The notes beneath the pieces were generated by a model that saw nothing but the letters and a program-made list of their open reading frames with translations, was not told the origin of the DNA and searched no databases. Shown piece after piece: positions 32,133 to 45,281 of a stretch of DNA of 64,000 bases. The DNA is from a virus (lineage: Duplodnaviria > Caudoviricetes): the IMG/VR virus record IMGVR_UViG_3300011164_000019, positions 10,641 through 74,640 of that record; one strand, 5' to 3'. The first letter of the stretch is position 1. Every line of letters starts with the position of its first letter. A program made the translations under genes and the position numbers.

Positions 32133-35100
32133 ATGGCCCAACTTCCTGAGCTTCCTGAAGATATTCGTGGCATCGATCTGACGGATATCAAAAAGAACCA
32201 ACTGGCTCAGGCCAGTGAATTCAAGCGTCAACTACTGGAGGCCAGGAAGCCTCAGGGAGTCCAACCGGATTCCCTTCTGAGTCAGCACGAGCAACGTGTA
32301 GCCGGTATGCAGGCAGAGAATGCCGAGTACATGGCCAAGCGTGCTCAGAAGCAGGAAGCCTTCGACAACAGCTGGGTCGGTCGTAGTGGTGTTGATCCAG
32401 ACAGTTTCACTGCAGGTGTGATTGATGGTGGGGCCATGCTGACAGCAGGTGCCGGCTACTTGGCCGGTACTGTGCTGACTGCTGCTCCAAACACCCTGGC
32501 TGCCATTCAGGAGCTGGGCACCAGCGACGACGTGAAAGCAGCCTACACCCGGTTCAAGCAGGGTCAGGCCAGCGAAGCGGATATCGCGTTGCTGAACGAG
32601 AAGCAGGACCTGTTCACCACCAACCAGGAAGGGCTGGAGCGTGCCGATCACCTGCGCGAAGGCACTCGCGGGATCATGGACCTGTTCGACTGGAAGGGTG
32701 CGATCGATGCGCCTCAGCGTGAGCCTCTGCGCGAGGAGTTCGCCGAGGAAGCAGGTCCTGCTGTCGATCGACTGGCTCAGGCCTGGGAGCAGGTCAAGGA
32801 AGGCGAGTACACCGAAGCAGCCAAAGGCGCTGGCTGGGCACTCCCCAAGGTGGCTTACGAGATCGCCGAGAATGCGGTCCAGCATCCGGTCGGTGCAGTG
32901 ACTCATGCGCTGGAGAACGCTCCACAGCTGGCAGCTGGTGTGGCAGGCAAGCTGCCGATGGCTGTATCTAACGCAGGCTATGCCCTGGATGAAGTCCGTC
33001 AGGGCATGGACAATTACGAGCAGGACAATGACGGTGCTCGCCCAACAGGCGGTGAGTTCCGCGAAATGCTGCTGCGTGCCGGTAGCCTGGCAGCTGCCGA
33101 GCACATTGCCGATACCCAGGTACTCAAGACCCTGACCTCCCCGGTGACCAAGACCGCCCAAGTTCTGCCGGAGAAGGCAGTTGGTGCATTGGCCAAGCCG
33201 GCGAAGGCTGCTGGCACGGTACTGGGTACAGGTGCAACCGAAGCGGTGACCGAAGCCTTTCAGACGTATCAGGAAGGTGAGATCAAGAACCGTGAAGCCT
33301 CGCCCATGGACATTGCCGAAGGTGCTCTGCTGGGTTTTGCAGCCGGTGGTGCTACGGCTGCTGCATCCAAGGCGCCAGCAGATCTGTTGGGCAGTACGGG
33401 TGAGAAGAAGGAACCGGAAGTCGAGAAGGCCAGTGAGACCGGCAACGTGTCCTCGCTGTTGCAACCGGGCGCCTACGCACCGGAGAAAGCAGCCAAGGCT
33501 CTGGCAGAACACAGCCTGAAGAACGAGGACGCTCAGGTCCGTCAGGACAACCTGACCAAGCTGGGTGAGATCCGTTCTGCCCTGGAAGATGAAGCCAAGG
33601 CTGAAGCCATGGTCGAGCGTATCCAGCAGCGCATGGAATCCGCTCCTCAGGAGCAACAGCCTCAACTGGAGGCTTTGCTGGCTCAGGCCACCGAGTCGCT
33701 GACTGCCCGTCGTGCTGCACTGGGTCTGCAGGATGTACCGGCTGCCGAGCGTAAAGAAGCACTGGCCAAGCAGCTGGATCAGGTGAAGCAGGCAGAGGAC
33801 TCGATAACCCAGCTGATGGAACCGGAGAAGCAGGATCTGTCCTCGCAGATCGAGCTGGCCGATACCGTACTCGAGAACGTCACCCCTGAAGTCCAGCAGA
33901 CTGCCCGTAAGGCAGCCGAGCGTGTGGTCTCTCTGGCCATGGAATCGCCAGAAGCCCTGGATGTGGAGGTGGCTACTCGCCTGGCCAGCAACATGGCCAA
34001 CAGCCTCACCGAGCCTGAGCGTGTCGTGCTGCGTACCTTCGCCAAGGCCAAGGCACTGGCTCACCAGGTCAAAGGCCTGGAAGGCGTCAGCAGCGATATC
34101 TTCAACGGCAATCCGAAGGAAGGGTACAAGGGCCTCAACGAGTACAGCAGCAACGTGCGTCGTGCTCTGGCCTACAAGACTCCTGATCTGGAAGCCGCTC
34201 AGCACGAGATCGATGGCCTGGCCAAGTTCGTGGAGTCGCGCAAGGCCAAGCTGGCTGTGGCTCAGAAAGCCTTCGATGAAGTGGCCGGTACTCGGGATGA
34301 CGGACAGCAGTGGCTACCTACCAGGTCCGGGACCTGGGTGCCTGCTGATCGCAAGTACAGCTACGACGAGATGTACGCGATGGGTGGTATGACCATCCAC
34401 GGTGGATCTGGGAACCTGGTGGCCAATATCGCTCAGGAAACCGAAGCCCTGGAAGCCAGCCTGCAATCGCTGCAGGCACTGTACGCCATGAAGTCGGCTG
34501 CACCGGTACAAACAGCCGTGAATCAGCCGGAGGCTGCTGCACCTCAGGCCGTTGAGCCTGTTGAACAGAAGGCTCCAGTCCAGACACCGGAGCAGGAAGC
34601 CGGCATTGCCGAAGATGCCCCGGAAGCGGTGAAGTACCGCAAGACGAACAACCTCAAGCGTCTGTTCTCTCAGCAGCCAGGTAACCCGACAACCGGAACT
34701 CAGCGTCCGCTGGTGGCCACCGAGAACTTCCTGACCAAGCTCAGCCAGGGCGAAGTGAACACCCTGGATTACGTGCAGCAGGAAGACCTGAGCGAAGAGC
34801 AGCTGGGGCTGCCGAGTGCGTTCATCCGTACGGCCAAGGCCTGGATGCCGACCATCGAAGGCAACTTCTTCAAGCGGACCACTCAGGCCGGTCACAAGAC
34901 CGACGCACGGGATCACTACTACAACGACTACACCCAGTACCTGCAGGATGAGCAGGGGCAGGTGGCTGAGAACGTGAAGACCGCCATTGCGGCTGCTGCG
35001 TTTGCTCATGTGGCTGACAACGGCGGTCAGACGCTGAACGACAACACCACCATCAACAAGATCCTGGGCAAGGACAAGGATGCCTCGATCACCCCGGCAG

Positions 35101-38100
35101 CCAACCAGAAGCTGCGCAAGATCGGCACGCTGCGCAGTGCCCTGATCAACTCGCTGGGTCAGGCCGTGGTGCAGTCGCTGGGTTATCAGCTCAAGGGTGA
35201 TGCCTCGCAGAGCGAGAAGGCCAAGCTGGAAGTGGCCCTGGGTGCTCAGGCACTGGCTCTGCTGCTGGATCAGGGCATTGTCGAGCAGACCACCCTCACC
35301 AAAGGTGAGCTGGATGACCTCAAGGGCGTGGACTTCAATGGCCAGATCAAGGCCATGCGTGCAGTCGCCAAGACTCAGGCCGATCGGGATGCCATCGACA
35401 GGTTGATCGAGTCCCGCAAGAACGAGGTGGCCTTCATTCGCTTCGTGACCAACAAGGACGGCGCCCTGACTCAGGAAGCTCAGGCGATTCGAGATGCCAG
35501 CAAGAATACAGGTAGTCTGTTCACCAAGCTGTTCGGCATCGAGACCGGTCCCCGTGAACCGAGCTTCAAGCCACTGAAGTACGACCAGAAGACGGCGAAC
35601 AACTCCACCAAGCCGATCTCCGACAAGGAGCGTGCTGCGTTGGAGAAGGAAGCCAAGGCACCCTACATCCTGCAAAAAGACATGTGGGCCGTGCTGGAGA
35701 AGATCGCCAACCCGGCGATGATTCTGCAGATGGCAGGCGTGCAGGATGAGGCGCTGGAGACTCTGCACAAGACCAACCGTGACGGTGTGACCGCCAAGAA
35801 CCAGGGCCTGATGCGCGAATGGGAACGTCTGGTGGCGTTCGTGGGCGATCTCAGCCGTCAGAAGGCTGGCCAGGACACCAAGTTCTACCTGATGCCGAGT
35901 GCCTGGAAGAACGATCGTGTGGGCCTGGATTCGGCCATCAACCCGCAAACCAGCAAGATTCATCGCTTCGTCATTGGCAAGCAGAGTGCCGAGACCGAGG
36001 TTCGCTGGACTGACGCCGACCAGTCGATGCTGGACGTATTCAAGCTGCGTGTGGCTGAAGGTCTGGGCATGAAGACCGACAAGCAGGACAACAAGCGTTC
36101 GTTGGCTGCCTACGAAGCCGAGATGCAGAAGCCGGTGTACCAAAATGCAGTGGCTGCCCTGCGTAAGGCTTTGCTGGATCAGGACCTGACCTCGGGCGAA
36201 CAGCAGGCGATCGTCGAAGGCGTGAAGGCTGGCGGTGAGAACTTCCATTCGCTGTCCTCGCTGGTGGCCCAAGCCACCTACGAGAACGCCCGTGAGGCTG
36301 GGCAGCAGAAGTTCACCACCATGCTGCTGGCCGAAGTGGACGGCGTGACCAATGGCCCGATGCTGGGTCACCTGCTGTTCGGTGCCTTCCATTCGATGCA
36401 GGATGCGATGGCTAGACTGAACAAAGGAGGTTTCTTCGAGACCGGTAATGCTTTCGAGCAATACAACCTGTGGCGTGCAGCACCCGGTCAGAGTGACCTG
36501 TATGAGTCGACTGCCATCGACCTGAACGCGGTGGTGCAGGAGAAGTGGCAGGACAAGAAGTTGCAGCCTATGTACAGCGCGCTGTTTTACGTCACCGGCA
36601 AGCTGGACGACAAAGGGTCACCAACCAAGGCTGGCCGTAATCTGATGAAGCCTCCGGTGACCAAGAGTGGTTACGGTGAAGGTCTGGGCAAGACCGTCGA
36701 AACCATGGCTGAGGATTTCATTCAGCAGGTCTACGACCACATCCAGGAGATCTCGGCAGGCAAGTCCAAGCTGGAGCTGCAACCGCTGCTGTCGTCTGTT
36801 CGTCTGCTGATCAGCAAGGCCGATGAGAAGGCGGCTGCAGAGTTGGACGTGGATATGCCGATCGAGAGGGCGATGGAGTTCACCTTCACGAACCAGCAGT
36901 TCAAGGCATTGAAGTCCACCTACCTGAGCACGCTGGGTAGGGATATCACGGCCACCATCAAGGAAGCCTTTGGTCCGTTCACCGAGCGTCGTCAGGCCTT
37001 CAACCAGGCTGCCAACCTGGCATTCGACCTGTACCAGCAGCTGTATCAGTCCAAGCGTCGTGCCCTGATCGACCAGCTGATCGCCGAAGGCAAGATGGCT
37101 ACGGACGCCAAGGGTGTTCCGCTGCATGACCTGACCAACAAGCAGGAAGCTGAGCTGCAGGCTTCGCTGACTGATGTGGCTCCGATCCTGCACACCGCAT
37201 TCTCCAGTGCCAGCGATCAGCTGCAGGCCGGTATGCGTCTGGCCAAGCGAGACAAAGGCCTCAGTGATGAGGCCGCCTACCGCAACGAGGTGAAGTTCGG
37301 CAAGAAGGGCAAGAAGCCAATGGCTGGTTTGCGTGCCTTCGGCTACAAGACCGGCGAAGTAGGACCGGGCGTGTCCGGTGCCGTGGGTTCGGTTCACTCG
37401 ACCGACGCTGCGATCTCGATCAATGCCGGTGCCGAGGTGGATTCGATCAACGTCCACGATGCCCGTATCTACGGACTGAAGGATGTGCATGCGGGTGCCC
37501 GTAGCCTGAACAAGCAGACCTTCCTGCAGGCGCTGGAATACTCCCCGATGGACCAGATGCTGGCCACCCTGGAGCGTTCGATCAAAGGCCTGGCGGATGC
37601 ACTGGCTCAGGAAAACGATGCAACCCTGAACGCTGGCGTGGCTTCGCTGCTGACCAAGAAAATCGCTTCGCTGAGCGACATTGAATATGACCTTATGGCC
37701 GATAGTGGTAAAGGGCTGATCCAATTTCAGCTGGATCGGCTCCGTGCTACCGCACTGGCTGCCGAATCCATGAAGCTGGAGATCCTGGCCAACCTGCAGG
37801 CGGTCGACCAGTACGCTTTCGAAGGTGGTGCCTACCAGGTCACCGAGCAGGATCGTGCAAAGGCCCAGCAAAAGCTGGAGGAGCGTAAGCAGCGCCCTGA
37901 TGATGTAGCGGTCACTGAGGCAGCAAAGCAGATCGATGCACTGCTTGGCCAGAAAACTGCACAGGCAAAGCTGGCTCCAGTGGTACAGAGCGAACCTACT
38001 CTGGTCGATGATGCCGATCTGGGCATTCCTGAGCGTCAGGAAGATCCTGTTGTAACCACCAGTGCCTGGGGTGAGTTGGGCAAGTCGCCGATCGAGCATG

Positions 38101-41100
38101 ACAGTGAGCTGGTTCAGTTCTTCAAGAGCAACCCGCGGCCTTCGCTCAAGTATGTACTCAAGGCCCTCCGTTCGCGTATCGAAGTCACCAGCAACGGACG
38201 GACTCAGGAGTACAACCGCGAACTGTGGAAAGCCCTGGCCAAGCACGTCAATCCGGCGATGAAGATCGTCTACGTCACGCCTGAGATGGCGATCCCGGAA
38301 GGTGTGGCCGAGAAGCAGGCACAGTCTGCCCGTGGTCTCTACAGCTTCAGCGATTCGATTGACACGCTGTACATCAAGAGCGATGCGTTCCGTCGTTCGG
38401 GCGTGACCACTGAACTGCTGATGCACGAGCTGGTTCACTCGGTGGTAGCCCGTACCATCGATCTGGCCGAGCAGGGCAAGCCTCTGCCGGATACGGCTGA
38501 ACTGGTGGCTGAACTGGGTGTGCTGCTGGAGCGCAGCCGTCAGCATGTGGCCGATAAGCCTGAACTGGCTCAGCGGTACAGCAATGCCCTGGCCAACGTG
38601 CAGGAGTTCGTGGCCTGGGGCATGACCAACCAGGGTTTCCAGCGTGATGTGCTGAACCAGTTCACCCTGCAGACCAAGACCTCGCGCAATGTGCTGGTCA
38701 AGGCCATGGAAGCCCTGACCAATGTGCTGCGTGACATTCTGTTCCGTGGTTCGGACAAGTCGGCACAGAAGATCCAGGTCACTGGCTTGAAGACGCTGCT
38801 GGCCAACGTCTCCGGTCTGATGGCGACGGCTGAACAGGCGCGTGAGGCCGTAGGTACTCAACGCACGCTGGCCATGGAAGATCCGGTTCTGGATATGGAC
38901 GTGGCTGATCTGTTCGATGGCCTGCGTAACACCGAGCAGCCCCTGGATGTTGGCTTCGAGAGTCACCTGCGTGATCTGCTGGATAACGTGGTGCGTCCGC
39001 TGCATGGTCCGTTTGGTGCCGTGCGTCTGGAAGCCTTGGACGATCAGGTGATCGGTGCCCGTGAGCGTTTCCTCAAGGCTCTGGCGACTGGCAAGGCACC
39101 GTTCGCTGCCAAACTCAGTGACGTGGTGAAGCTATCCGATCAGGAAGCGTTCCTGGCCGAGAGCATTGAAGTCGCCCTGCGTACTGCCCTGGAATCGAAG
39201 GATCGTTCGTCCTCGCTGGTCTACCGCGAGCTGAAGGGCCTGTACAACGAGATCAAGGCATCGCTGCCGGTATCGGCATTCTTCGATGGCGACTGGACCC
39301 AGGCCAGTGATGAACAGAAGGCGGAGGCCCAAGCCCTGCGTGAGTTCTTCCTGGAGATCCCGGACGGGGAAGGGCAGTCCGACTACCTGAGCCGCTTCGC
39401 TGCTCTGGGTCTGGCCTACCGTCCGCTGTGGAAGCTGCTGGATCGATCGACTCAGCAAGACACTCGTGTCCTGCGTGATCTGAGCTGGCTTGAGCGTCTG
39501 CAGGCTCTGGTTGAGCGTGCCATGGCCTATCTGGCCGGCAAGTGGACGCACACCTATGCCGGTCAGCAGGCCAACGACAAGCTCAAGACCCTGGTCGGTG
39601 AGCTGGTGGATATCGAGGCCAAGTACCGGGAAAAGGCTGCTCGTCCGAACAACCAGTGGATCGAGATGGCCGAGAACGCTCTGGCCGGTGTTCAGGGCAA
39701 GGCCAAGGACATGATCGACCAGGTGGCCAAGTCGGACATGGTGCGTAACTCGAAGGTCAGCGGTGTTCGTCTGATGGGTCGAGTGGCCAGCCTGGCTGCC
39801 GATGACCGCCTGGAAGCGGTGGTGGATGCCGGTAACCAGCTGCGTGACCGTCTGTTCAAGGGACGCCAGGGTCTGATGGCTGGCATGTTCAACGAGATGA
39901 AAGGGCCGAACGAGATCATGTTGGCCCTGCTCAACTTCGCCAAGCGCAATGAACAGGAGCGTAAGCACCTAATCAACTGGACCCGTGATACGGCCTTGGA
40001 GAGCTTCGCCAATAAAGGCAAAGACCTAACTGCCAAGGACAAGGACGCCATGGCTCTGCTGCTGCGTGCTGATCTGGCTTCGCTGCTGGATTACGGCTAC
40101 TCGCTGGAGGAGCTGCAGCAACTGCTGAGTCCCAACGGCAGCCTGCAGCAGCGGATTGCTGAATTGGGCAAGCAGCTCAAGACCTCGACTCATGCAGCCA
40201 TGTACCTGCGTCGTGCCGAGGCTCTGGGCAAATACATGGCCACCGGCAAGGCATCGATCGACAACCTGATGCTCAACGCGGACAACATCGCTCGCATGCT
40301 GGGCACCAAGGATGCACACAGCATTCCGGATGCTGAGCTGGATCGGGTACGTCCGCTGATCGATCAGCTGGCTTCGCTGTACGCCCTGGCCAATGCCAAC
40401 GAGTCTGACAAGGAGCGGATCTCCAACGTCCTGGCGACCGAGCTACAGCGTACCGATGGTGGTAACGGGGTGACCTTCGTTCTGAAGATGCACCGTGCCA
40501 TGCAGCAGGAAGCCAAGGAAAAGCTGTTCGAGAACAGTGAGGCCTTGTTCACCAAGGGCTACACACCGGAGATCCACAACCCGCACACCGAGGTACTGGC
40601 TGCCACCGAGGAAGAGGGCGAGGCACTGGTACGCCAGGGCTTCCAGCGTGTGGTCGGCAACCCGTTGAACCAGGATGCCGATGACCTGGATAAGCGTGCC
40701 AAGCACCTCTACATCCTCAAGGGCCGTGGCATGCAGCAGCGTCTGACCGGTGCCCTGTCCTATACAGGTGAGCGTGCCAAGGGCAGTCGCAAGCATGGTG
40801 GGATCGTCAACACGATCACCGGTAGCCTGAACACTCATAACGTCCAGGTCACTCAGCGACTGGCTCATGCCAAGCGCGTGCGTGAGGAGATGGCGATTCA
40901 GCAGGGCAAGCCGATGGGTGGGGTCCACATGGTCCCTGTACTTAATGCTGCCGGCGAGATCGTCAACTACCGCTACGTGATGAGCAACAAGGCACGGGAT
41001 TCGCTGCTGGAGCGAACCAATGCGTTCGATACGCTGCTGGGTACGCTGCATGGCAACGTGTTCGACAAGCAGGCCTCGCGTGAGCAGAACGCCCAAGTGG

Positions 41101-42380
41101 TCAAGGCCTTGTTCGATCAGTGGAATGCTGACAAGAACGATCGCCGTGACGCCTACATCATGGTGGGTCCGGACAGCAGCGATGCTGAAGGTGCAGAGAC
41201 CTGGCGTCTGCTGCCACACCACACTCAGGAAGCGATTCGTCAGGTGTGGAAGGGCAACAACATGATGGTGCGCAACGATCAGATCGACCTGATCGCCGGT
41301 TACCGCAAGTACAGCCTGGCTGACATGTTCGACAAGCAGGATCGTACGACCAAGGGTATGAAGAACCTGCTCAAGCATCAGGAAGATGAACGCAACATGC
41401 TGGAGCAGATGACCGTCTGGCTGTTGCAGGACTTCTTCGGGCTGGGTGACAAGGCGGCATTGCGTGTTCGCCAGGCAGAGGACTTCTGGCAGGCGGTGGT
41501 ACAGGAAGTGAAGGATATCGTGGTGGTACGGTCGGGTGTGACCTTGTTCTGGAACGTGGTCAGCAACATGACTGTACTGTTGTGGCAGGGTGTTCCGATC
41601 AAGGATCTGATGCGGAATCACTGGGTGGCGTGGCGTGGTGCAGTCAACTATCGGAAGGATTCCGAAGAGCTGTTCCGTCTGGAAGCAGCATTGTCGACTG
41701 GCACGTCTGGGGATGCGAAGGCTACACAGCAGCGTATTCGCCAATTGCAGGATTCTCTGGCACGTAACCCGGCCAAGGAACTGATTGATGCGGGGATGTT
41801 GCCGACCATCGTCGAAGACGTGGCCTTGGAAGAAGACCCTTACTCCTATCGCAGCAAGCTGAAGGAGAAGGTGGATCAGTACACCAGCAAGCTCAACCCC
41901 ACGGTCAAGCAAGCGGCTGCGTTCGTCTACATGGCTCCAGGTACTCCGTTGCACACGGCGATGAGCCAGGCCACTCAGTACTCGGACTTCGTGGCTCGCT
42001 ATACGCTGTATCAGCACCTGATCAGCGACAAGAAGGCGCCGAAATCCAAGCAGGAAGCGTTGAAGCGGATCTCCGACAGCTTCGTCAACTACGACGTACC
42101 GTCGCACCGCCACATGCAGTACCTGAATGACATGGGCTTGCTCATGTTCACCAAGTACTACCTGCGGATTCAGAAGGTGATCATGCAGATGTTCCGGGAG
42201 CATCCGGCTCGGGCGATCATGATGGTGACCCTGGATATCTACCTGAGCGGCATGCAGACCATCGTCGACTCCTCGATGTGGGGTCGCCTGGGGAATCCGC
42301 TGGAGTGGGGTGCCTTGCAGTACCCCGGCACGCTGGATGAGCTGGCCACCATCAAGGGAATGATGAACCTGTTCAAGTGA
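32133..42380 (+). CDS. Virion-encapsidated RNA polymerase (vRNAP, N4 gp50-like)
   Basis: 3415 aa, no Cys; motif A EVDGVTNG, motif B RNLMKPPVTKSGYG, motif C NVHDA. Confidence 0.97.
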   Translation: MAQLPELPEDIRGIDLTDIKKNQLAQASEFKRQLLEARKPQGVQPDSLLSQHEQRVAGMQAENAEYMAKRAQKQEAFDNSWVGRSGVDPDSFTAGVIDGGAMLTAGAGYLAGTVLTAAPNTLAAIQELGTSDDVKAAYTRFKQGQASEADIALLNEKQDLFTTNQEGLERADHLREGTRGIMDLFDWKGAIDAPQREPLREEFAEEAGPAVDRLAQAWEQVKEGEYTEAAKGAGWALPKVAYEIAENAVQHPVGAVTHALENAPQLAAGVAGKLPMAVSNAGYALDEVRQGMDNYEQDNDGARPTGGEFREMLLRAGSLAAAEHIADTQVLKTLTSPVTKTAQVLPEKAVGALAKPAKAAGTVLGTGATEAVTEAFQTYQEGEIKNREASPMDIAEGALLGFAAGGATAAASKAPADLLGSTGEKKEPEVEKASETGNVSSLLQPGAYAPEKAAKALAEHSLKNEDAQVRQDNLTKLGEIRSALEDEAKAEAMVERIQQRMESAPQEQQPQLEALLAQATESLTARRAALGLQDVPAAERKEALAKQLDQVKQAEDSITQLMEPEKQDLSSQIELADTVLENVTPEVQQTARKAAERVVSLAMESPEALDVEVATRLASNMANSLTEPERVVLRTFAKAKALAHQVKGLEGVSSDIFNGNPKEGYKGLNEYSSNVRRALAYKTPDLEAAQHEIDGLAKFVESRKAKLAVAQKAFDEVAGTRDDGQQWLPTRSGTWVPADRKYSYDEMYAMGGMTIHGGSGNLVANIAQETEALEASLQSLQALYAMKSAAPVQTAVNQPEAAAPQAVEPVEQKAPVQTPEQEAGIAEDAPEAVKYRKTNNLKRLFSQQPGNPTTGTQRPLVATENFLTKLSQGEVNTLDYVQQEDLSEEQLGLPSAFIRTAKAWMPTIEGNFFKRTTQAGHKTDARDHYYNDYTQYLQDEQGQVAENVKTAIAAAAFAHVADNGGQTLNDNTTINKILGKDKDASITPAANQKLRKIGTLRSALINSLGQAVVQSLGYQLKGDASQSEKAKLEVALGAQALALLLDQGIVEQTTLTKGELDDLKGVDFNGQIKAMRAVAKTQADRDAIDRLIESRKNEVAFIRFVTNKDGALTQEAQAIRDASKNTGSLFTKLFGIETGPREPSFKPLKYDQKTANNSTKPISDKERAALEKEAKAPYILQKDMWAVLEKIANPAMILQMAGVQDEALETLHKTNRDGVTAKNQGLMREWERLVAFVGDLSRQKAGQDTKFYLMPSAWKNDRVGLDSAINPQTSKIHRFVIGKQSAETEVRWTDADQSMLDVFKLRVAEGLGMKTDKQDNKRSLAAYEAEMQKPVYQNAVAALRKALLDQDLTSGEQQAIVEGVKAGGENFHSLSSLVAQATYENAREAGQQKFTTMLLAEVDGVTNGPMLGHLLFGAFHSMQDAMARLNKGGFFETGNAFEQYNLWRAAPGQSDLYESTAIDLNAVVQEKWQDKKLQPMYSALFYVTGKLDDKGSPTKAGRNLMKPPVTKSGYGEGLGKTVETMAEDFIQQVYDHIQEISAGKSKLELQPLLSSVRLLISKADEKAAAELDVDMPIERAMEFTFTNQQFKALKSTYLSTLGRDITATIKEAFGPFTERRQAFNQAANLAFDLYQQLYQSKRRALIDQLIAEGKMATDAKGVPLHDLTNKQEAELQASLTDVAPILHTAFSSASDQLQAGMRLAKRDKGLSDEAAYRNEVKFGKKGKKPMAGLRAFGYKTGEVGPGVSGAVGSVHSTDAAISINAGAEVDSINVHDARIYGLKDVHAGARSLNKQTFLQALEYSPMDQMLATLERSIKGLADALAQENDATLNAGVASLLTKKIASLSDIEYDLMADSGKGLIQFQLDRLRATALAAESMKLEILANLQAVDQYAFEGGAYQVTEQDRAKAQQKLEERKQRPDDVAVTEAAKQIDALLGQKTAQAKLAPVVQSEPTLVDDADLGIPERQEDPVVTTSAWGELGKSPIEHDSELVQFFKSNPRPSLKYVLKALRSRIEVTSNGRTQEYNRELWKALAKHVNPAMKIVYVTPEMAIPEGVAEKQAQSARGLYSFSDSIDTLYIKSDAFRRSGVTTELLMHELVHSVVARTIDLAEQGKPLPDTAELVAELGVLLERSRQHVADKPELAQRYSNALANVQEFVAWGMTNQGFQRDVLNQFTLQTKTSRNVLVKAMEALTNVLRDILFRGSDKSAQKIQVTGLKTLLANVSGLMATAEQAREAVGTQRTLAMEDPVLDMDVADLFDGLRNTEQPLDVGFESHLRDLLDNVVRPLHGPFGAVRLEALDDQVIGARERFLKALATGKAPFAAKLSDVVKLSDQEAFLAESIEVALRTALESKDRSSSLVYRELKGLYNEIKASLPVSAFFDGDWTQASDEQKAEAQALREFFLEIPDGEGQSDYLSRFAALGLAYRPLWKLLDRSTQQDTRVLRDLSWLERLQALVERAMAYLAGKWTHTYAGQQANDKLKTLVGELVDIEAKYREKAARPNNQWIEMAENALAGVQGKAKDMIDQVAKSDMVRNSKVSGVRLMGRVASLAADDRLEAVVDAGNQLRDRLFKGRQGLMAGMFNEMKGPNEIMLALLNFAKRNEQERKHLINWTRDTALESFANKGKDLTAKDKDAMALLLRADLASLLDYGYSLEELQQLLSPNGSLQQRIAELGKQLKTSTHAAMYLRRAEALGKYMATGKASIDNLMLNADNIARMLGTKDAHSIPDAELDRVRPLIDQLASLYALANANESDKERISNVLATELQRTDGGNGVTFVLKMHRAMQQEAKEKLFENSEALFTKGYTPEIHNPHTEVLAATEEEGEALVRQGFQRVVGNPLNQDADDLDKRAKHLYILKGRGMQQRLTGALSYTGERAKGSRKHGGIVNTITGSLNTHNVQVTQRLAHAKRVREEMAIQQGKPMGGVHMVPVLNAAGEIVNYRYVMSNKARDSLLERTNAFDTLLGTLHGNVFDKQASREQNAQVVKALFDQWNADKNDRRDAYIMVGPDSSDAEGAETWRLLPHHTQEAIRQVWKGNNMMVRNDQIDLIAGYRKYSLADMFDKQDRTTKGMKNLLKHQEDERNMLEQMTVWLLQDFFGLGDKAALRVRQAEDFWQAVVQEVKDIVVVRSGVTLFWNVVSNMTVLLWQGVPIKDLMRNHWVAWRGAVNYRKDSEELFRLEAALSTGTSGDAKATQQRIRQLQDSLARNPAKELIDAGMLPTIVEDVALEEDPYSYRSKLKEKVDQYTSKLNPTVKQAAAFVYMAPGTPLHTAMSQATQYSDFVARYTLYQHLISDKKAPKSKQEALKRISDSFVNYDVPSHRHMQYLNDMGLLMFTKYYLRIQKVIMQMFREHPARAIMMVTLDIYLSGMQTIVDSSMWGRLGNPLEWGALQYPGTLDELATIKGMMNLFK

Positions 42381-42382
42381 TG

Positions 42383-42410
42383 AAAAAGCCCTCTACGGAG
42401 GGCTTTCTTC
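42383..42410. terminator. Bidirectional terminator
   Basis: AAAAAGCCCTC-TACG-GAGGGCTTTCTTC between convergent units. Confidence 0.85.
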
Positions 42411-42825: not shown

Positions 42826-43197
42826 TTAGCCCCCGAAGAGGCTGGCCTTCTGAACGACAGGCTCTTCTTCTTCCTGAGGATCAGGCAGAACGTCTTCGGC
42901 AGCCGGCGAGGTTTCCACGACATGCAGCTGGGGAGCCGGAGTCGCTTCCTCTACACCACCGACGCTGCCGGAAGTGGACGCCTGGGTTTCGCAGACTTGG
43001 CTGCACTGGACGTTGCCCGAAACACTGCCCATCACGGCAGCAGCATCGTGAATGTCCAGGTCAGCGGTCATGCCGCTGTCGCCACGACCGGCAGTGAACG
43101 AAATGTCCACGGTCTTGCGATCGAGGTTGAAGCCTTGCTTGACGATGAAGTCGCGCAGGGCTTCTTCGATCTCGGATTGTTTCAGTTTGATCAGCAT
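42826..43197 (-). CDS. Hypothetical protein (N4-like conserved N-terminus)
   Basis: MLIKLKQSEIEEALRDFI...FTAGRG; GAGGA RBS. Confidence 0.75.
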   Translation of the reverse strand: MLIKLKQSEIEEALRDFIVKQGFNLDRKTVDISFTAGRGDSGMTADLDIHDAAAVMGSVSGNVQCSQVCETQASTSGSVGGVEEATPAPQLHVVETSPAAEDVLPDPQEEEEPVVQKASLFGG

Positions 43198-43214
43198 GTT
43201 GAGTCCTCTCATAG

Positions 43215-43772
43215 TTAAACGTGCTGCCAGCTGTGTCCGTAGGCAATATCTTTTACCAAAGACACTGGGACATTTAGCTGGCGGGCTATGGTTATGTTTC
43301 TGCCGTACCGCTTACCTGTGTAGTTGGATAGGGCAGTTTTGATAGAGCGCGCTTGGTTTTCTGTGCAGACGGAGTTGTAGTGTGAATCCCCACGACGGAC
43401 TGTTCCGTGCTTTTCCCGGTCGCTTTCATTGGATTGATGGGTATCCCACCTAAGATTACTCAACTTGTTGTTGAAGCTATCTCCGTCTGAGTGACACCCC
43501 TCCTGACCTGCAGAAGGTTCACCGACAAATGCTCTAAGCACCAGCGAATGCACAGAGTGGTGTTGCTTCCCTTCCTTAGCCAGATGGACGTATAGATAAC
43601 GACCACTACTCCCTTTTACAGGCGATAGGTTCTTGCTCTTTACTACCCTCTGGTAAGGATTACCCGACCTACTGACTTGCGTAAGGCTTCGCTCAACACT
43701 ACGCACATTCCCGAAATCTGAAACTTCATAGAAGCCTTCATATCCTGGGACGCTTTTCCAAGTCTCGGTCAT
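43215..43772 (-). mobile_element. Free-standing NUMOD4-HNH homing endonuclease
   Basis: ETWKSVPGYEGFYEVSDFGNVRS (NUMOD4); VHSLVLRAF...CHSDGDSFNNKLSNLRW (HNH). Confidence 0.9.
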
Positions 43773-44353
43773 GCGACCTCCTTGGCCCTGAGTAGATTCA
43801 AGAACTGCTGAAAAGCAGGTAAATTCAGTCCGGCATGGATTGCCCCTACCGAGTCGGCCATGTGTTCAGCTTTGGCTTCGCTGATCACCTCCTGTCCGTG
43901 CTGCTTGTAGGTAGGCCACTTGGCCTCAGGGTGACGGTTGTACGCCCACTGGATCATCTCGCTCTTGGTGGCCGTCTTCTTGCCCACGGAGATCATCTTC
44001 ACCTCGGTCGGGGTGACCTCGAAGAAGGGAATCCCGCTGGCTCGAAGGGCACCCAGTACGCCCACGCAGATGCCGTAGGAGGCCATTGCGCGTGCAGACT
44101 GGCTACCGATCGGAACCTCGACGAAGATCGCGTGAGCGCCCATAGCTGCAGCCAAGGCCTGAGCACAGAGCTGACGGGCAGACTCCAGATCCAGGCTGTT
44201 CTGGCGAACCTGCTTGCCGGTGGAGAGTACGGGCTGGATCACCTCCAGGTGAGTGATCTCCAGGCTACCAGGTAGCTCAGCGGTCATCACACCCTTGGCA
44301 ATGCCCCAGTTGCGTAGGCTCGGATCGAACCCGACAACGTGGAGCAGGCTCAT
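43769..44353 (-). CDS. RuvC-like Holliday junction resolvase
   Basis: GFDPSLRNWG, FVEVP, EHMADS acidic catalytic pattern. Confidence 0.8.
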   Translation of the reverse strand: MSLLHVVGFDPSLRNWGIAKGVMTAELPGSLEITHLEVIQPVLSTGKQVRQNSLDLESARQLCAQALAAAMGAHAIFVEVPIGSQSARAMASYGICVGVLGALRASGIPFFEVTPTEVKMISVGKKTATKSEMIQWAYNRHPEAKWPTYKQHGQEVISEAKAEHMADSVGAIHAGLNLPAFQQFLNLLRAKEVA

Positions 44354-44562
44354 GCCGGTAGCTCGCTGTAGCCGTCCTCGAAGATGACCTTGGGCGACCA
44401 AGACTCGTAATGATCAGCAGTGTGCTGGTTGTACACCACCAAGTAGCCAGCATCTTCGGGATTTTCATTCTCCGGAATTTGCCACCCACGGTAGATGTTG
44501 TACTCACCACGAGTCATCGGCTGCGCATGTACTCGCTTGTGGCACTGATAATGTTTCAACAT
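44350..44562 (-). CDS. Small YRGW-domain phage protein
   Basis: PMTRGEYNIYRGW...GYLVVY...YESWSPK.IFEDGY. Confidence 0.75.
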   Translation of the reverse strand: MLKHYQCHKRVHAQPMTRGEYNIYRGWQIPENENPEDAGYLVVYNQHTADHYESWSPKVIFEDGYSELPA

Positions 44563-44563
44563 A

Positions 44564-44941
44564 TCAGTGCTGCTCCAGCTGGTGCAGCTTGGACTTCAGC
44601 TCGTATCCCATCAGCGGCCAGATCTTGTCCACCGCATTGCGGCGAGCGATCTTCTGGCCCACTTCAGCATCGAAGTTCTCCGGACTGGCACAGGCCGATT
44701 CACCAGTGACGGTGAAGCCGTTCTTGAGGACTAGCACGCAGAAGGTGAGCAGACCCAGCGATTCTGGGAAGTCCGGAAGACTGATGGTTTGCTGACTGCT
44801 CGCATTGACGAGTGCGAAGCTAGCCCCATCCTCTGCGGTGAAGTAGTGCTCGCTGGCGATGTTGGCTTCCACGTCAGCCGGCGTGATGCGCGGTGCAGTA
44901 AGACCCTTGTTCAGGATCTCTTGCTCGATTGGATCAACCAT
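44564..44941 (-). CDS. N4 gp49/Sf6 gp66-family protein (Acb4-like nucleotide sponge candidate)
   Basis: LTFCVLVLKNGFTVTGESACASPENFDAEVGQKIARRNAVDKIWPLMGY; GGAGG RBS. Confidence 0.8.
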   Translation of the reverse strand: MVDPIEQEILNKGLTAPRITPADVEANIASEHYFTAEDGASFALVNASSQQTISLPDFPESLGLLTFCVLVLKNGFTVTGESACASPENFDAEVGQKIARRNAVDKIWPLMGYELKSKLHQLEQH

Positions 44942-45233
44942 TGGATGCCTCCTGTTGGACTTCGCCTTCAGCCGGAGCCTGGGCTTCATCCACCGGGGTA
45001 GCTGTGAATGGCAGATCAGCGAACAGCGCCTTGGCCACGATCAGACCGGCCTTGAAGCCTTCACGCTGCTCGGCAGTCATCGGCACGTCTTCGCCGTTCT
45101 CGCCTGGCTGGCTGATTTCCACGTCATCCGGCACCTGCTGGATCTGGCCCAGTTGAGCCATGCGGTTGGAATGCCAGTGAGTGATCAGGGCTGCGAACTG
45201 ATCGGGGGTTTGGATAGTGATGGTTTCGCTCAT
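44934..45233 (-). CDS. Hypothetical protein
   Basis: 99 aa from ATG 45233 with a GAGG RBS. Confidence 0.7.
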   Translation of the reverse strand: MSETITIQTPDQFAALITHWHSNRMAQLGQIQQVPDDVEISQPGENGEDVPMTAEQREGFKAGLIVAKALFADLPFTATPVDEAQAPAEGEVQQEASNG

Positions 45234-45255
45234 GTACACCTCTTGAGCAGAAATG

Positions 45256-45281
45256 AAAAAGGGCCAGTTGCCTGGCCCTTT
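45256..45281 (-). terminator. Intrinsic terminator after SSB
   Basis: GGGCCAG-GCAA-CTGGCCC followed by TTTTT. Confidence 0.8.

Follow-up and report, generated by a model that had tools for sequence, protein, structure and literature searches.

What does a free-standing YRGW protein do when its gene lies a single base behind that of an Acb4-family sponge: is it a sponge in its own right, a part that serves its neighbor, or something unrelated to immune signals? An earlier note on this DNA, made from its letters alone, had taken the two genes for an anti-CBASS/anti-Thoeris module, and both open reading frames, the 1-nt spacing and the motifs were found on the minus strand exactly as it had described them (44564-44941 and 44350-44562). 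The reading that we prefer, while giving it somewhat less than an even chance, is that these are two translationally coupled genes of an anti-signaling hotspot, i.e., one for an Acb4 sponge and one for a YRGW protein that acts as an autonomous homodimeric binding module. What is shown for this locus is the families to which the proteins belong, how they fold, where their genes lie and how the domains are fused elsewhere.

Genomic setting of the acb4 and YRGW genes

The window, i.e., the whole stretch of DNA analyzed, takes up the final 64 kb of a virus record that is 74,640 bases long (GC content 55.6%), and the source virus is an N4-like podophage. The primases of Cbunavirus-like and Enterobacter N4-like phages share ~63% identity with its own, and the phage therefore falls outside the named genera of the collection searched; a megablast search of the locus against phage records gave no match. 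The features concerned are the following:

32133-42380, plus strand: virion RNA polymerase gene (3,415 aa), from the ORF call
45258-45281, minus strand: GC-rich hairpin of 10 bp followed by a T-rich tail, from a scan for terminator-like sites
44934-45236, minus strand: gene that opens the cassette, for a 100-aa protein weakly matching PHROG 15896 (E 4e-13; "Mu Gam-like end protection")
44942-44953, minus strand: Shine-Dalgarno sequence AGGAGG and spacer ahead of the Acb4 start, read from the sequence
44564-44941, minus strand: Acb4-family sponge gene (125 aa; Phage_gp49_66/PF13876)
44350-44562, minus strand: stand-alone YRGW protein (70 aa; no Pfam or NCBIfam family; PHROGs 872, 18865 and 9467)
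43769-44353, minus strand: RuvC-like protein, orthologue of Ab09 gp60 (Bes1), 45% identity, E 1e-54; PHROG 159
43215-43772, minus strand: NUMOD4/HNH homing endonuclease (Pfam NUMOD4, E 1e-13, plus HNH_3)
42826-43212, minus strand: Bes2-like protein (30% identity to Ab09 gp61 over 54 aa, E 1e-7)

Read along the minus strand, the order is the SSB gene, the hairpin, the Gam-like ORF, acb4, the YRGW gene, the Bes1-like gene, the NUMOD4/HNH gene, the Bes2-like gene and a small membrane-protein gene, and the order of the SSB, Bes1-orthologue and Bes2-like genes matches that of the phages Ab09 and N4. The acb4 and YRGW pair falls within the anti-signaling hotspot that was described for N4-like phages (Fedorova et al., bioRxiv 10.64898/2026.06.04.730250), a region bounded by the primase/SSB genes on one side and the gene of the virion RNA polymerase on the other. 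In Ab09 (vB_PaeP_C2-10_Ab09), the genes for gp59 (an Acb4-Sequestin fusion), Bes1 and Bes2 each aid the evasion of CBASS and Thoeris (10.64898/2026.06.04.730250). The acb4 gene of the window occupies the same slot as that of gp59, after SSB, before Bes1/Bes2 and facing the virion RNA polymerase gene, and thereby places an uncultivated N4-like phage in the published hotspot scheme. The two loci differ in that Ab09 fuses a helical Sequestin to its Acb4, whereas the window has a separate gene for a beta-rich YRGW protein, and also in the HNH gene between the bes1-like and bes2-like genes and an unrelated small gene upstream.

This upstream gene (the 100-aa Gam-like ORF) gave no hits in a Pfam search and bears no similarity to Ab09 gp58. 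The hairpin, a putative terminator, lies between the SSB gene and the cassette; sites of this kind are no commoner here than in shuffled sequence. Downstream, the Bes1-like protein matches the RuvC-like resolvases of PHROG 159 (E 4e-41), and the PHROG matches of the Bes2-like protein, which likely starts at a Met at about 43197, are limited to families of unknown function. The endonuclease gene is an insertion that parts the bes1-like gene from the bes2-like one, and it is missing from a relative (L004) that is elsewhere 93-100% identical.

The genes of the cassette are tightly packed. The stop of the Gam-like ORF overlaps the Acb4 start by 8 nt, and the 3' end of this ORF holds the Shine-Dalgarno sequence of acb4 (AGGAGG, with a 6-nt spacer before the ATG at 44941), a start with which the N-termini of homologues agree. 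The Acb4 stop (TGA, 44564-44566) is separated from the YRGW ATG by one base (44563), and the TGA of the YRGW gene in turn shares bases with the start codon of the gene behind it (ATGA, 44350-44353). With this layout, acb4 and the YRGW gene would be translationally coupled genes of the N4-like anti-signaling hotspot.

The Acb4-family protein

The earlier note had placed Acb4 in the gp49/gp66 family, and this is confirmed in the literature, where Acb4 is assigned to PF13876 (Chang et al., bioRxiv 10.1101/2024.12.30.630793). In Pfam, the 125-aa protein hits Phage_gp49_66 (PF13876) with 119.1 bits against a cut-off of 27 (E 1.1e-34), the match spanning all 82 positions of the model, and its relatives number at least 8,000 scored clusters at E<=1e-10. 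Among the named proteins, N4 gp48 is 40% identical over 108 aa, i.e., almost full length, and the Acb4 domain of Ab09 gp59 is 58% identical over the 59 aa of the core. The structure of SPO1 Acb4 (PDB 9E4W) was reached by sequence alone (E 0.0045), and the AlphaFold2 (AF2) model of the protein (pLDDT 86) returned chains of 9E4W as all of its ten best PDB matches (probability 1.00), the best core overlay covering 52 aa at 1.6 A. The next PDB matches after 9E4W are dsRBD and hibernation-factor folds, the same structural neighbors that are given for Acb4 (Chang et al., bioRxiv 10.1101/2024.12.30.630793). The sponge core (about residues 60-120) sits behind an N-terminal extension resembling that of N4 gp48; in the model, residues 60-124 form a helix, two core strands (65-72 and 77-83) and a long helix, with a third strand (28-35) within the extension, and this agrees with SPO1 Acb4, whose core of three antiparallel strands is flanked by helices. 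Thus, we regard the family assignment as secure, with very little room for doubt.

The kinship with SPO1 Acb4 is one of Pfam family and core fold, whereas identity is about 30% over 50 aa and the protein of the window has the additional extension of roughly 60 aa. The ligand contacts of SPO1 Acb4 were taken as K36, F48, E49, V56, Y57, F62, N63, I66, T70 and K81. Two of the nine aligned positions are identical, i.e., the stacking/packing phenylalanines F48 and F62 (F76 and F90 here), and V94 is a conservative change of I66. The others differ, e.g., E49, Y57, T70 and K81 are T77, A85, I98 and P109, yet they mostly match the Ab09 Acb4 domain. Since just two of nine contact positions are identical, ligand specificity is not readable from the contacts.

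What an Acb4 protein does is known from its relatives. SPO1 Acb4, a PF13876 member, sequesters 3'3'-cGAMP as a tetramer; each of the eight homologues that were purified (8/8) bound cGAMP, and the ones encoded by phages of Gram-negative hosts bound c-di-AMP as well (bioRxiv 10.1101/2024.12.30.630793). Full-length Ab09 gp59, the fusion protein, is reported to inhibit type II-A CBASS and to have cGAMP and 2',3'-c-di-AMP as ligands, and its isolated Acb4 domain is a tetramer (10.64898/2026.06.04.730250). By homology, the protein of the window would also assemble as a tetramer and sequester CBASS cyclic dinucleotides, likely 3'3'-cGAMP and probably c-di-AMP-type signals too. We propose that with these dinucleotides sequestered the CBASS effector would never be activated. 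An anti-CBASS function is strongly supported, by homology and by the place of the gene in an experimentally defined anti-signaling hotspot. By itself, the acb4 gene is a routine annotation.

The YRGW protein, its fold and its fusions

The second gene, which bears the PMTRGEYNIYRGW...SWSPK motifs, encodes 70 residues that match no family in Pfam (E<=1) or NCBIfam, and the three PHROGs that it belongs to (872, 18865 and 9467) are all of unknown function. It has a large family nonetheless, comprising 1,294 clusters at 50% identity (E<=1e-3, in a library of 1.84 billion proteins), and all of the ~30 residues conserved across this family are present. The AF2 model has a mean pLDDT of 96.3, and, given the cluster count, the conserved residues and the confidence of the model, we take the ORF for a real protein and not for a chance frame. 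The model comprises strands at residues 3-6, 10-15, 39-44 and 52-57, a short one at 66-67, and helices at 18-25 and 58-64. Homologous domains occur in phages of Proteobacteria, Clostridium and Parabacteroides, and the invariant aromatic and polar residues are Y21, R25, W27, E33, Y40, Y52 and S54-W55-S56-P57.

The closest named relatives are parts of larger proteins. BLASTP aligns the protein to residues 7-78 of N4 gp49 (39% identity, E 2e-16), so that in N4 (EF056009) an Acb4-family gene (gp48) is followed by one that starts with YRGW, in the same order as in the window; N4 gp49, however, continues into a C-terminal Tad2-like domain (PF11195, E 8e-24, residues 83-159), whereas the window protein ends after YRGW. 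With tblastn, residues 4-69 of gp68 of Pectobacterium phage CB1 (vB_PatP_CB1) align at 43% identity (E 2e-8), and further matches among phage records fall on ORFs annotated as RyR-domain or DUF2829. CB1 gp68 is RyR Tad, in which the domain shares a polypeptide with a RyR-repeat gcADPR sponge and is encoded right after the primase, whereas the copy of the window is free and follows Acb4. The earlier note had suggested that the stand-alone YRGW protein may be an uncharacterized inhibitor; the domain is not wholly uncharacterized, as its crystal structure within RyR Tad was described in a 2026 preprint: the N-domain is a strand-swapped dimer of five-stranded sheets, residues 1-86 alone have no activity against type I Thoeris, and the C-terminal RyR part is sufficient (10.64898/2026.06.04.730250). 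The five-stranded beta sheet predicted for our protein fits this description. Owing to the inactivity of CB1 gp68 residues 1-86 on type I Thoeris, the anti-Thoeris half of the proposed module is without specific support, and the anti-CBASS half stands for Acb4 through homology and the hotspot.

Structure searches lead back to the same family. A BFVD search with the YRGW model returned family members alone, e.g., the model of a RyR-domain protein of Yersinia phage TG1 (TM 0.88, rmsd 1.3 A). Against a PDB copy that lacks the RyR Tad structure, Foldseek gave matches at E>=0.49; a wider fold search reached a best Z of 4.8, and a further one a best Z of 4.1. The best structural match is DUF1653 (PF07866; PDB 3BE3; Z 4.8, rmsd 3.3 A over 57 residues); the DUF1653 HMM found zero matches in the genome at E<=0.01, a search in which the positive controls were silent too. 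The fold weakly resembles the small barrels of SH3, Tudor and CarD-RID domains (Z 4.0-4.8). Barrels of this type usually bind peptides or nucleic acids rather than nucleotides.

Several identities were considered for the protein and rejected. The Sequestin part of Ab09 gp59 is helical, belongs to PF21825 and is unrelated in sequence, whereas the YRGW model is beta-rich and has no Pfam hit; TadIV-1, a helical dimer, is confined to T4-like phages. Tad3 was discarded in the absence of any sequence or profile match to a solved PDB chain named Tad. The HMM checks of the earlier note were split in their outcome: Acb4 was matched, as described above (119.1 bits), and Tad2 (PF11195/DUF2829) gave no hit for either protein, the resemblance to SPO1 Tad2 being at noise level (TM 0.41, Z 2.2). 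The capsid-decoration (Dec) fold, suggested by the annotations of two records, was absent from the fold-search lists. Finally, a search of PDB sequences with the YRGW profile returned fibronectin-III domains alone (E 0.011-0.5, on a short W..P...GY.V.Y motif), which we consider chance matches.

We took a census of fusion partners in the best 150 of the 1,294 cluster representatives, using Pfam together with custom HMMs. In proteins longer than the query, the partners are PF11195 (Tad2), PF13876 (Acb4) and PF21825 (Sequestin). By Pfam, Sequestin accompanies YRGW in 39 of these best 150 representatives, Acb4 in 20 and the Tad2-like domain in 19; the Acb2/Tad1 hairpin (PF24729) does so in two, and T7 gp5.9, a pesticin lysozyme and OmpA in one each. 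Stand-alone copies make up 42/150 (28%) and copies with other unassigned sequence 37/150 (custom HMMs, best 150 of 1,294), and the remaining representatives combine the modules in every order, including Acb4-YRGW, Seq-YRGW and several triple fusions. The domain sits at the N-terminus, in the center or at the C-terminus, joined by flexible linkers. Thus, gp098 of Stenotrophomonas phage Philippe is Acb4-YRGW-Sequestin, gp38 of Pseudomonas phage inbricus is YRGW-Acb4-Sequestin, and a metagenomic protein (P0006) consists of Acb4, a flexible linker and a YRGW part that is 75% identical to that of the window. YRGW is fused to the RyR domain too, and IMG/VR loci add YRGW with a borderline Acb2/Tad1 hairpin match and YRGW with a WDGH domain. 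All told, at least five sponge families are fused to YRGW in one order or another, and the statement of the earlier note that it is often fused to gp49-family or DUF2829 proteins holds for both (PF13876 and PF11195) and extends to Sequestin, RyR and Acb2-like domains.

The natural fusions put Acb4 and YRGW on one polypeptide, in P0006 and Philippe in the order seen here, whereas the window splits the modules into two genes, one base apart, and Philippe and inbricus add Sequestin. The locus thereby contributes a split form, a free YRGW right after a free Acb4, that has natural fusions of the same order. The same ~30 conserved residues are found in stand-alone, sponge-fused and other copies. In another N4-like phage a stand-alone YRGW gene directly follows the primase gene, and in a third it lies two genes from an Acb2-like gene; near the stand-alone copies in P2-like and T7-like contexts, no recognized sponge was found. 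Sequestin was discovered by this same fusion logic among Pfam families alone, and YRGW, if it is a sponge, would be one that such Pfam-based fusion screens missed because it has no Pfam entry.

What the YRGW protein may do

We consider that YRGW may be an autonomous ligand-binding module, an interchangeable "bead" of the phage sponge toolkit, and hold this tentatively, at a little under even. Several observations were counted for it: YRGW behaves in fusions as the known sponges do with one another, it is often free-standing, stand-alone and fused copies keep the same ~30 residues, the C-domain of RyR Tad works without it, and the homologous N-domain of RyR Tad dimerizes in the crystal. Phages whose hosts differ widely keep the same surface residues, as would befit a small molecule as the target, and the breadth of these hosts (Proteobacteria, Clostridium and Parabacteroides) argues for a universal one, e.g., a small molecule. 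Counted against the module were the inactivity of the CB1 gp68 N-domain alone on type I Thoeris, the weak SH3/Tudor-like fold, the few non-sponge fusions and the stand-alone copies without a sponge. On balance, we postulate that a YRGW homodimer would use its surface of invariant aromatic and polar residues to bind a conserved small molecule other than gcADPR. That this ligand might be a nucleotide, as the earlier note had suggested, is argued from guilt by association. The stronger claim that YRGW is a new sponge family, with a fold new to the job and a ligand outside the gcADPR set, is more doubtful again, though still a possibility to be reckoned with. For the phage of the window itself, we infer the tetramer and the dimer, every ligand and any rescue from defense.

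The alternative that survives best, though we think it unlikely, casts YRGW as an accessory or oligomerization module, i.e., a domain-swapped dimer that cross-links or stabilizes sponges, here in trans on the co-translated Acb4 tetramer. It draws on the crystal of RyR Tad, where the strand-swapped dimer contributes to dimerization and the domain alone has no anti-Thoeris-I activity, on the near-constant company of sponge domains, and on the 1-nt gap to acb4, which suggests matched production. The sponges, however, appear to manage without such help: the isolated Acb4 domains of SPO1 and gp59 are already tetramers, the isolated Sequestin domain is a dimer, Tad2 is a homotetramer in its crystal structure according to a review, and the C-domain of RyR Tad is sufficient for function. 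Since this C-domain works without the N-domain, YRGW is not a required accessory in RyR Tad. Neither do the 28% of clusters that stand alone (best 150 of 1,294), some of them without a sponge gene nearby, sit well with an accessory role, nor do the freely permuted fusion positions and flexible linkers, and the conserved polar and aromatic residues exceed the apparent needs of a dimer interface.

We regard as improbable that YRGW is instead a protein-binding inhibitor whose invariant loop (residues 26-38) inserts into a host immune protein in the manner of Tad3-Tad8, the candidate targets including enzymes (TIR or CD-NTase), effectors and sponge-sensing guards. Tad3-8 are small dimeric phage proteins whose loops or helices directly block ThsB or ThsA, the YRGW fold resembles SH3/Tudor-like peptide binders, and one fusion is to gp5.9, a protein-binding inhibitor of RecBCD. 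Surface residues that are conserved among phages of very different hosts would nevertheless be unusual for inhibitors of fast-evolving immune proteins, and the YRGW profile matches no solved PDB chain named Tad. An anti-guard role in particular is further weakened, if only slightly, by N4, whose acb4 activates Panoptes even though the phage has a YRGW-Tad2 fusion (cited in 10.64898/2026.06.04.730250). Very improbable, finally, is a relic without function that remains from an earlier fusion (e.g., from a YRGW-Tad2 protein such as N4 gp49) or a role unrelated to defense: N4 does carry Acb4 and then YRGW-Tad2 at the same position, which makes loss of the C-terminal domain conceivable, and two records do annotate homologues as "Dec" or capsid decoration protein, but the ORF is intact with every family-conserved residue, its overlap with the start of the next gene leaves no space for any remnant, the protein and that of L004 are the same but for one residue, stand-alone forms are a large share of the family, the gene lies among middle-region genes and not in the structural module, and the Dec structure is absent from the fold searches.

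For the preferred reading, a YRGW module that acts on its own, the free 70-residue protein is the simplest testable form, as it can be made and tested alone, and the split locus and its fused counterparts offer a clean comparison set whichever way the answer falls. If YRGW binds an immune signal, the phages would have an extra sponge family that may point to a signal or defense not yet linked to sponges, and with 1,294 clusters it would rank among the larger ones. If it does not, there is an accessory part common to phage sponges, and the role of this part would need explaining.

A comparison with L004 bears on the recent history of the locus. The YRGW gene is 99.5% identical at the nucleotide level in the two phages versus 78% for acb4, and a recent exchange of the YRGW cassette was therefore considered; it was dropped owing to a sliding-window comparison, in which the phage of the window and L004 show 93-100% identity almost everywhere. 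They diverge in small patches, one of which falls within the 5' half of acb4.

Possible sequence exchange within the cassette

Comparison of the window with the IMG/VR locus L004 (two phages that are near-identical in the cassette region) showed that the 5' half of acb4 (window 44718-44946, minus strand), encoding the N-terminal extension and the first strands, is only 55-87% identical, whereas identity is 93-100% in the 3' part of acb4 and across the YRGW gene. This pattern suggests a local mosaic patch inside this sponge gene. A further difference involves a gene located downstream:

43215-43772, minus strand: NUMOD4/HNH homing endonuclease gene, between the bes1-like and bes2-like genes

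Given that the whole segment (ca. 43218-43817) is missing from L004, elsewhere 93-100% identical to the window, it appears to be a recent insertion of mobile DNA.

Genes and hairpins accompanying the sponge genes

The genes on either side of this endonuclease, the first gene of the cassette and two hairpins are located as follows:

42385-42406, plus strand: second hairpin, after the virion RNA polymerase gene
42826-43212, minus strand: Bes2 homologue (30% identity over 54 aa to Bes2 of Pseudomonas phage vB_PaeP_C2-10_Ab09, hereafter Ab09)
43769-44353, minus strand: Bes1 homologue, RuvC-like (45% identity to Ab09 Bes1)
44934-45236, minus strand: 100-aa ORF, first gene of the cassette
45258-45281, minus strand: GC-rich hairpin of 10 bp with a T-rich tail, lying between the cassette and the SSB gene

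In Ab09, both Bes1 and Bes2 act against CBASS and Thoeris, and do so by means other than sponging (Fedorova et al., bioRxiv 10.64898/2026.06.04.730250). The 100-aa product matched PHROG 15896 ("Mu Gam-like end protection", E 4e-13), and a Pfam search with it returned zero matches. It could represent a RecBCD-type nuclease inhibitor adjoining the sponge genes. Ab09 gp58, at the equivalent position, is unrelated to this product.

Relatives of the Acb4-like protein and YRGW fusions

The nearest relatives of the Acb4-like protein among phage records (H61 and H62, 68-72% identity) are encoded by temperate Pseudomonas phages. There the gene carries the label "anti-CRISPR protein", which seems to be an erroneous annotation for a member of PF13876. 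YRGW domains also occur in other architectures, e.g., in a fusion with WDGH (PF25311, E 2e-43). IMG/VR loci with YRGW fusions include:

L080, 3004-3516
L034, 2992-3582

In a large group of proviruses from isolate genomes, the part fused C-terminally to YRGW has a borderline match to the Acb2/Tad1 hairpin (26-27 bits against a cut-off of 27). In one cluster representative (P0166, 238 aa), a complete YRGW domain occurs in tandem with two YRGW-like stretches that are partial.
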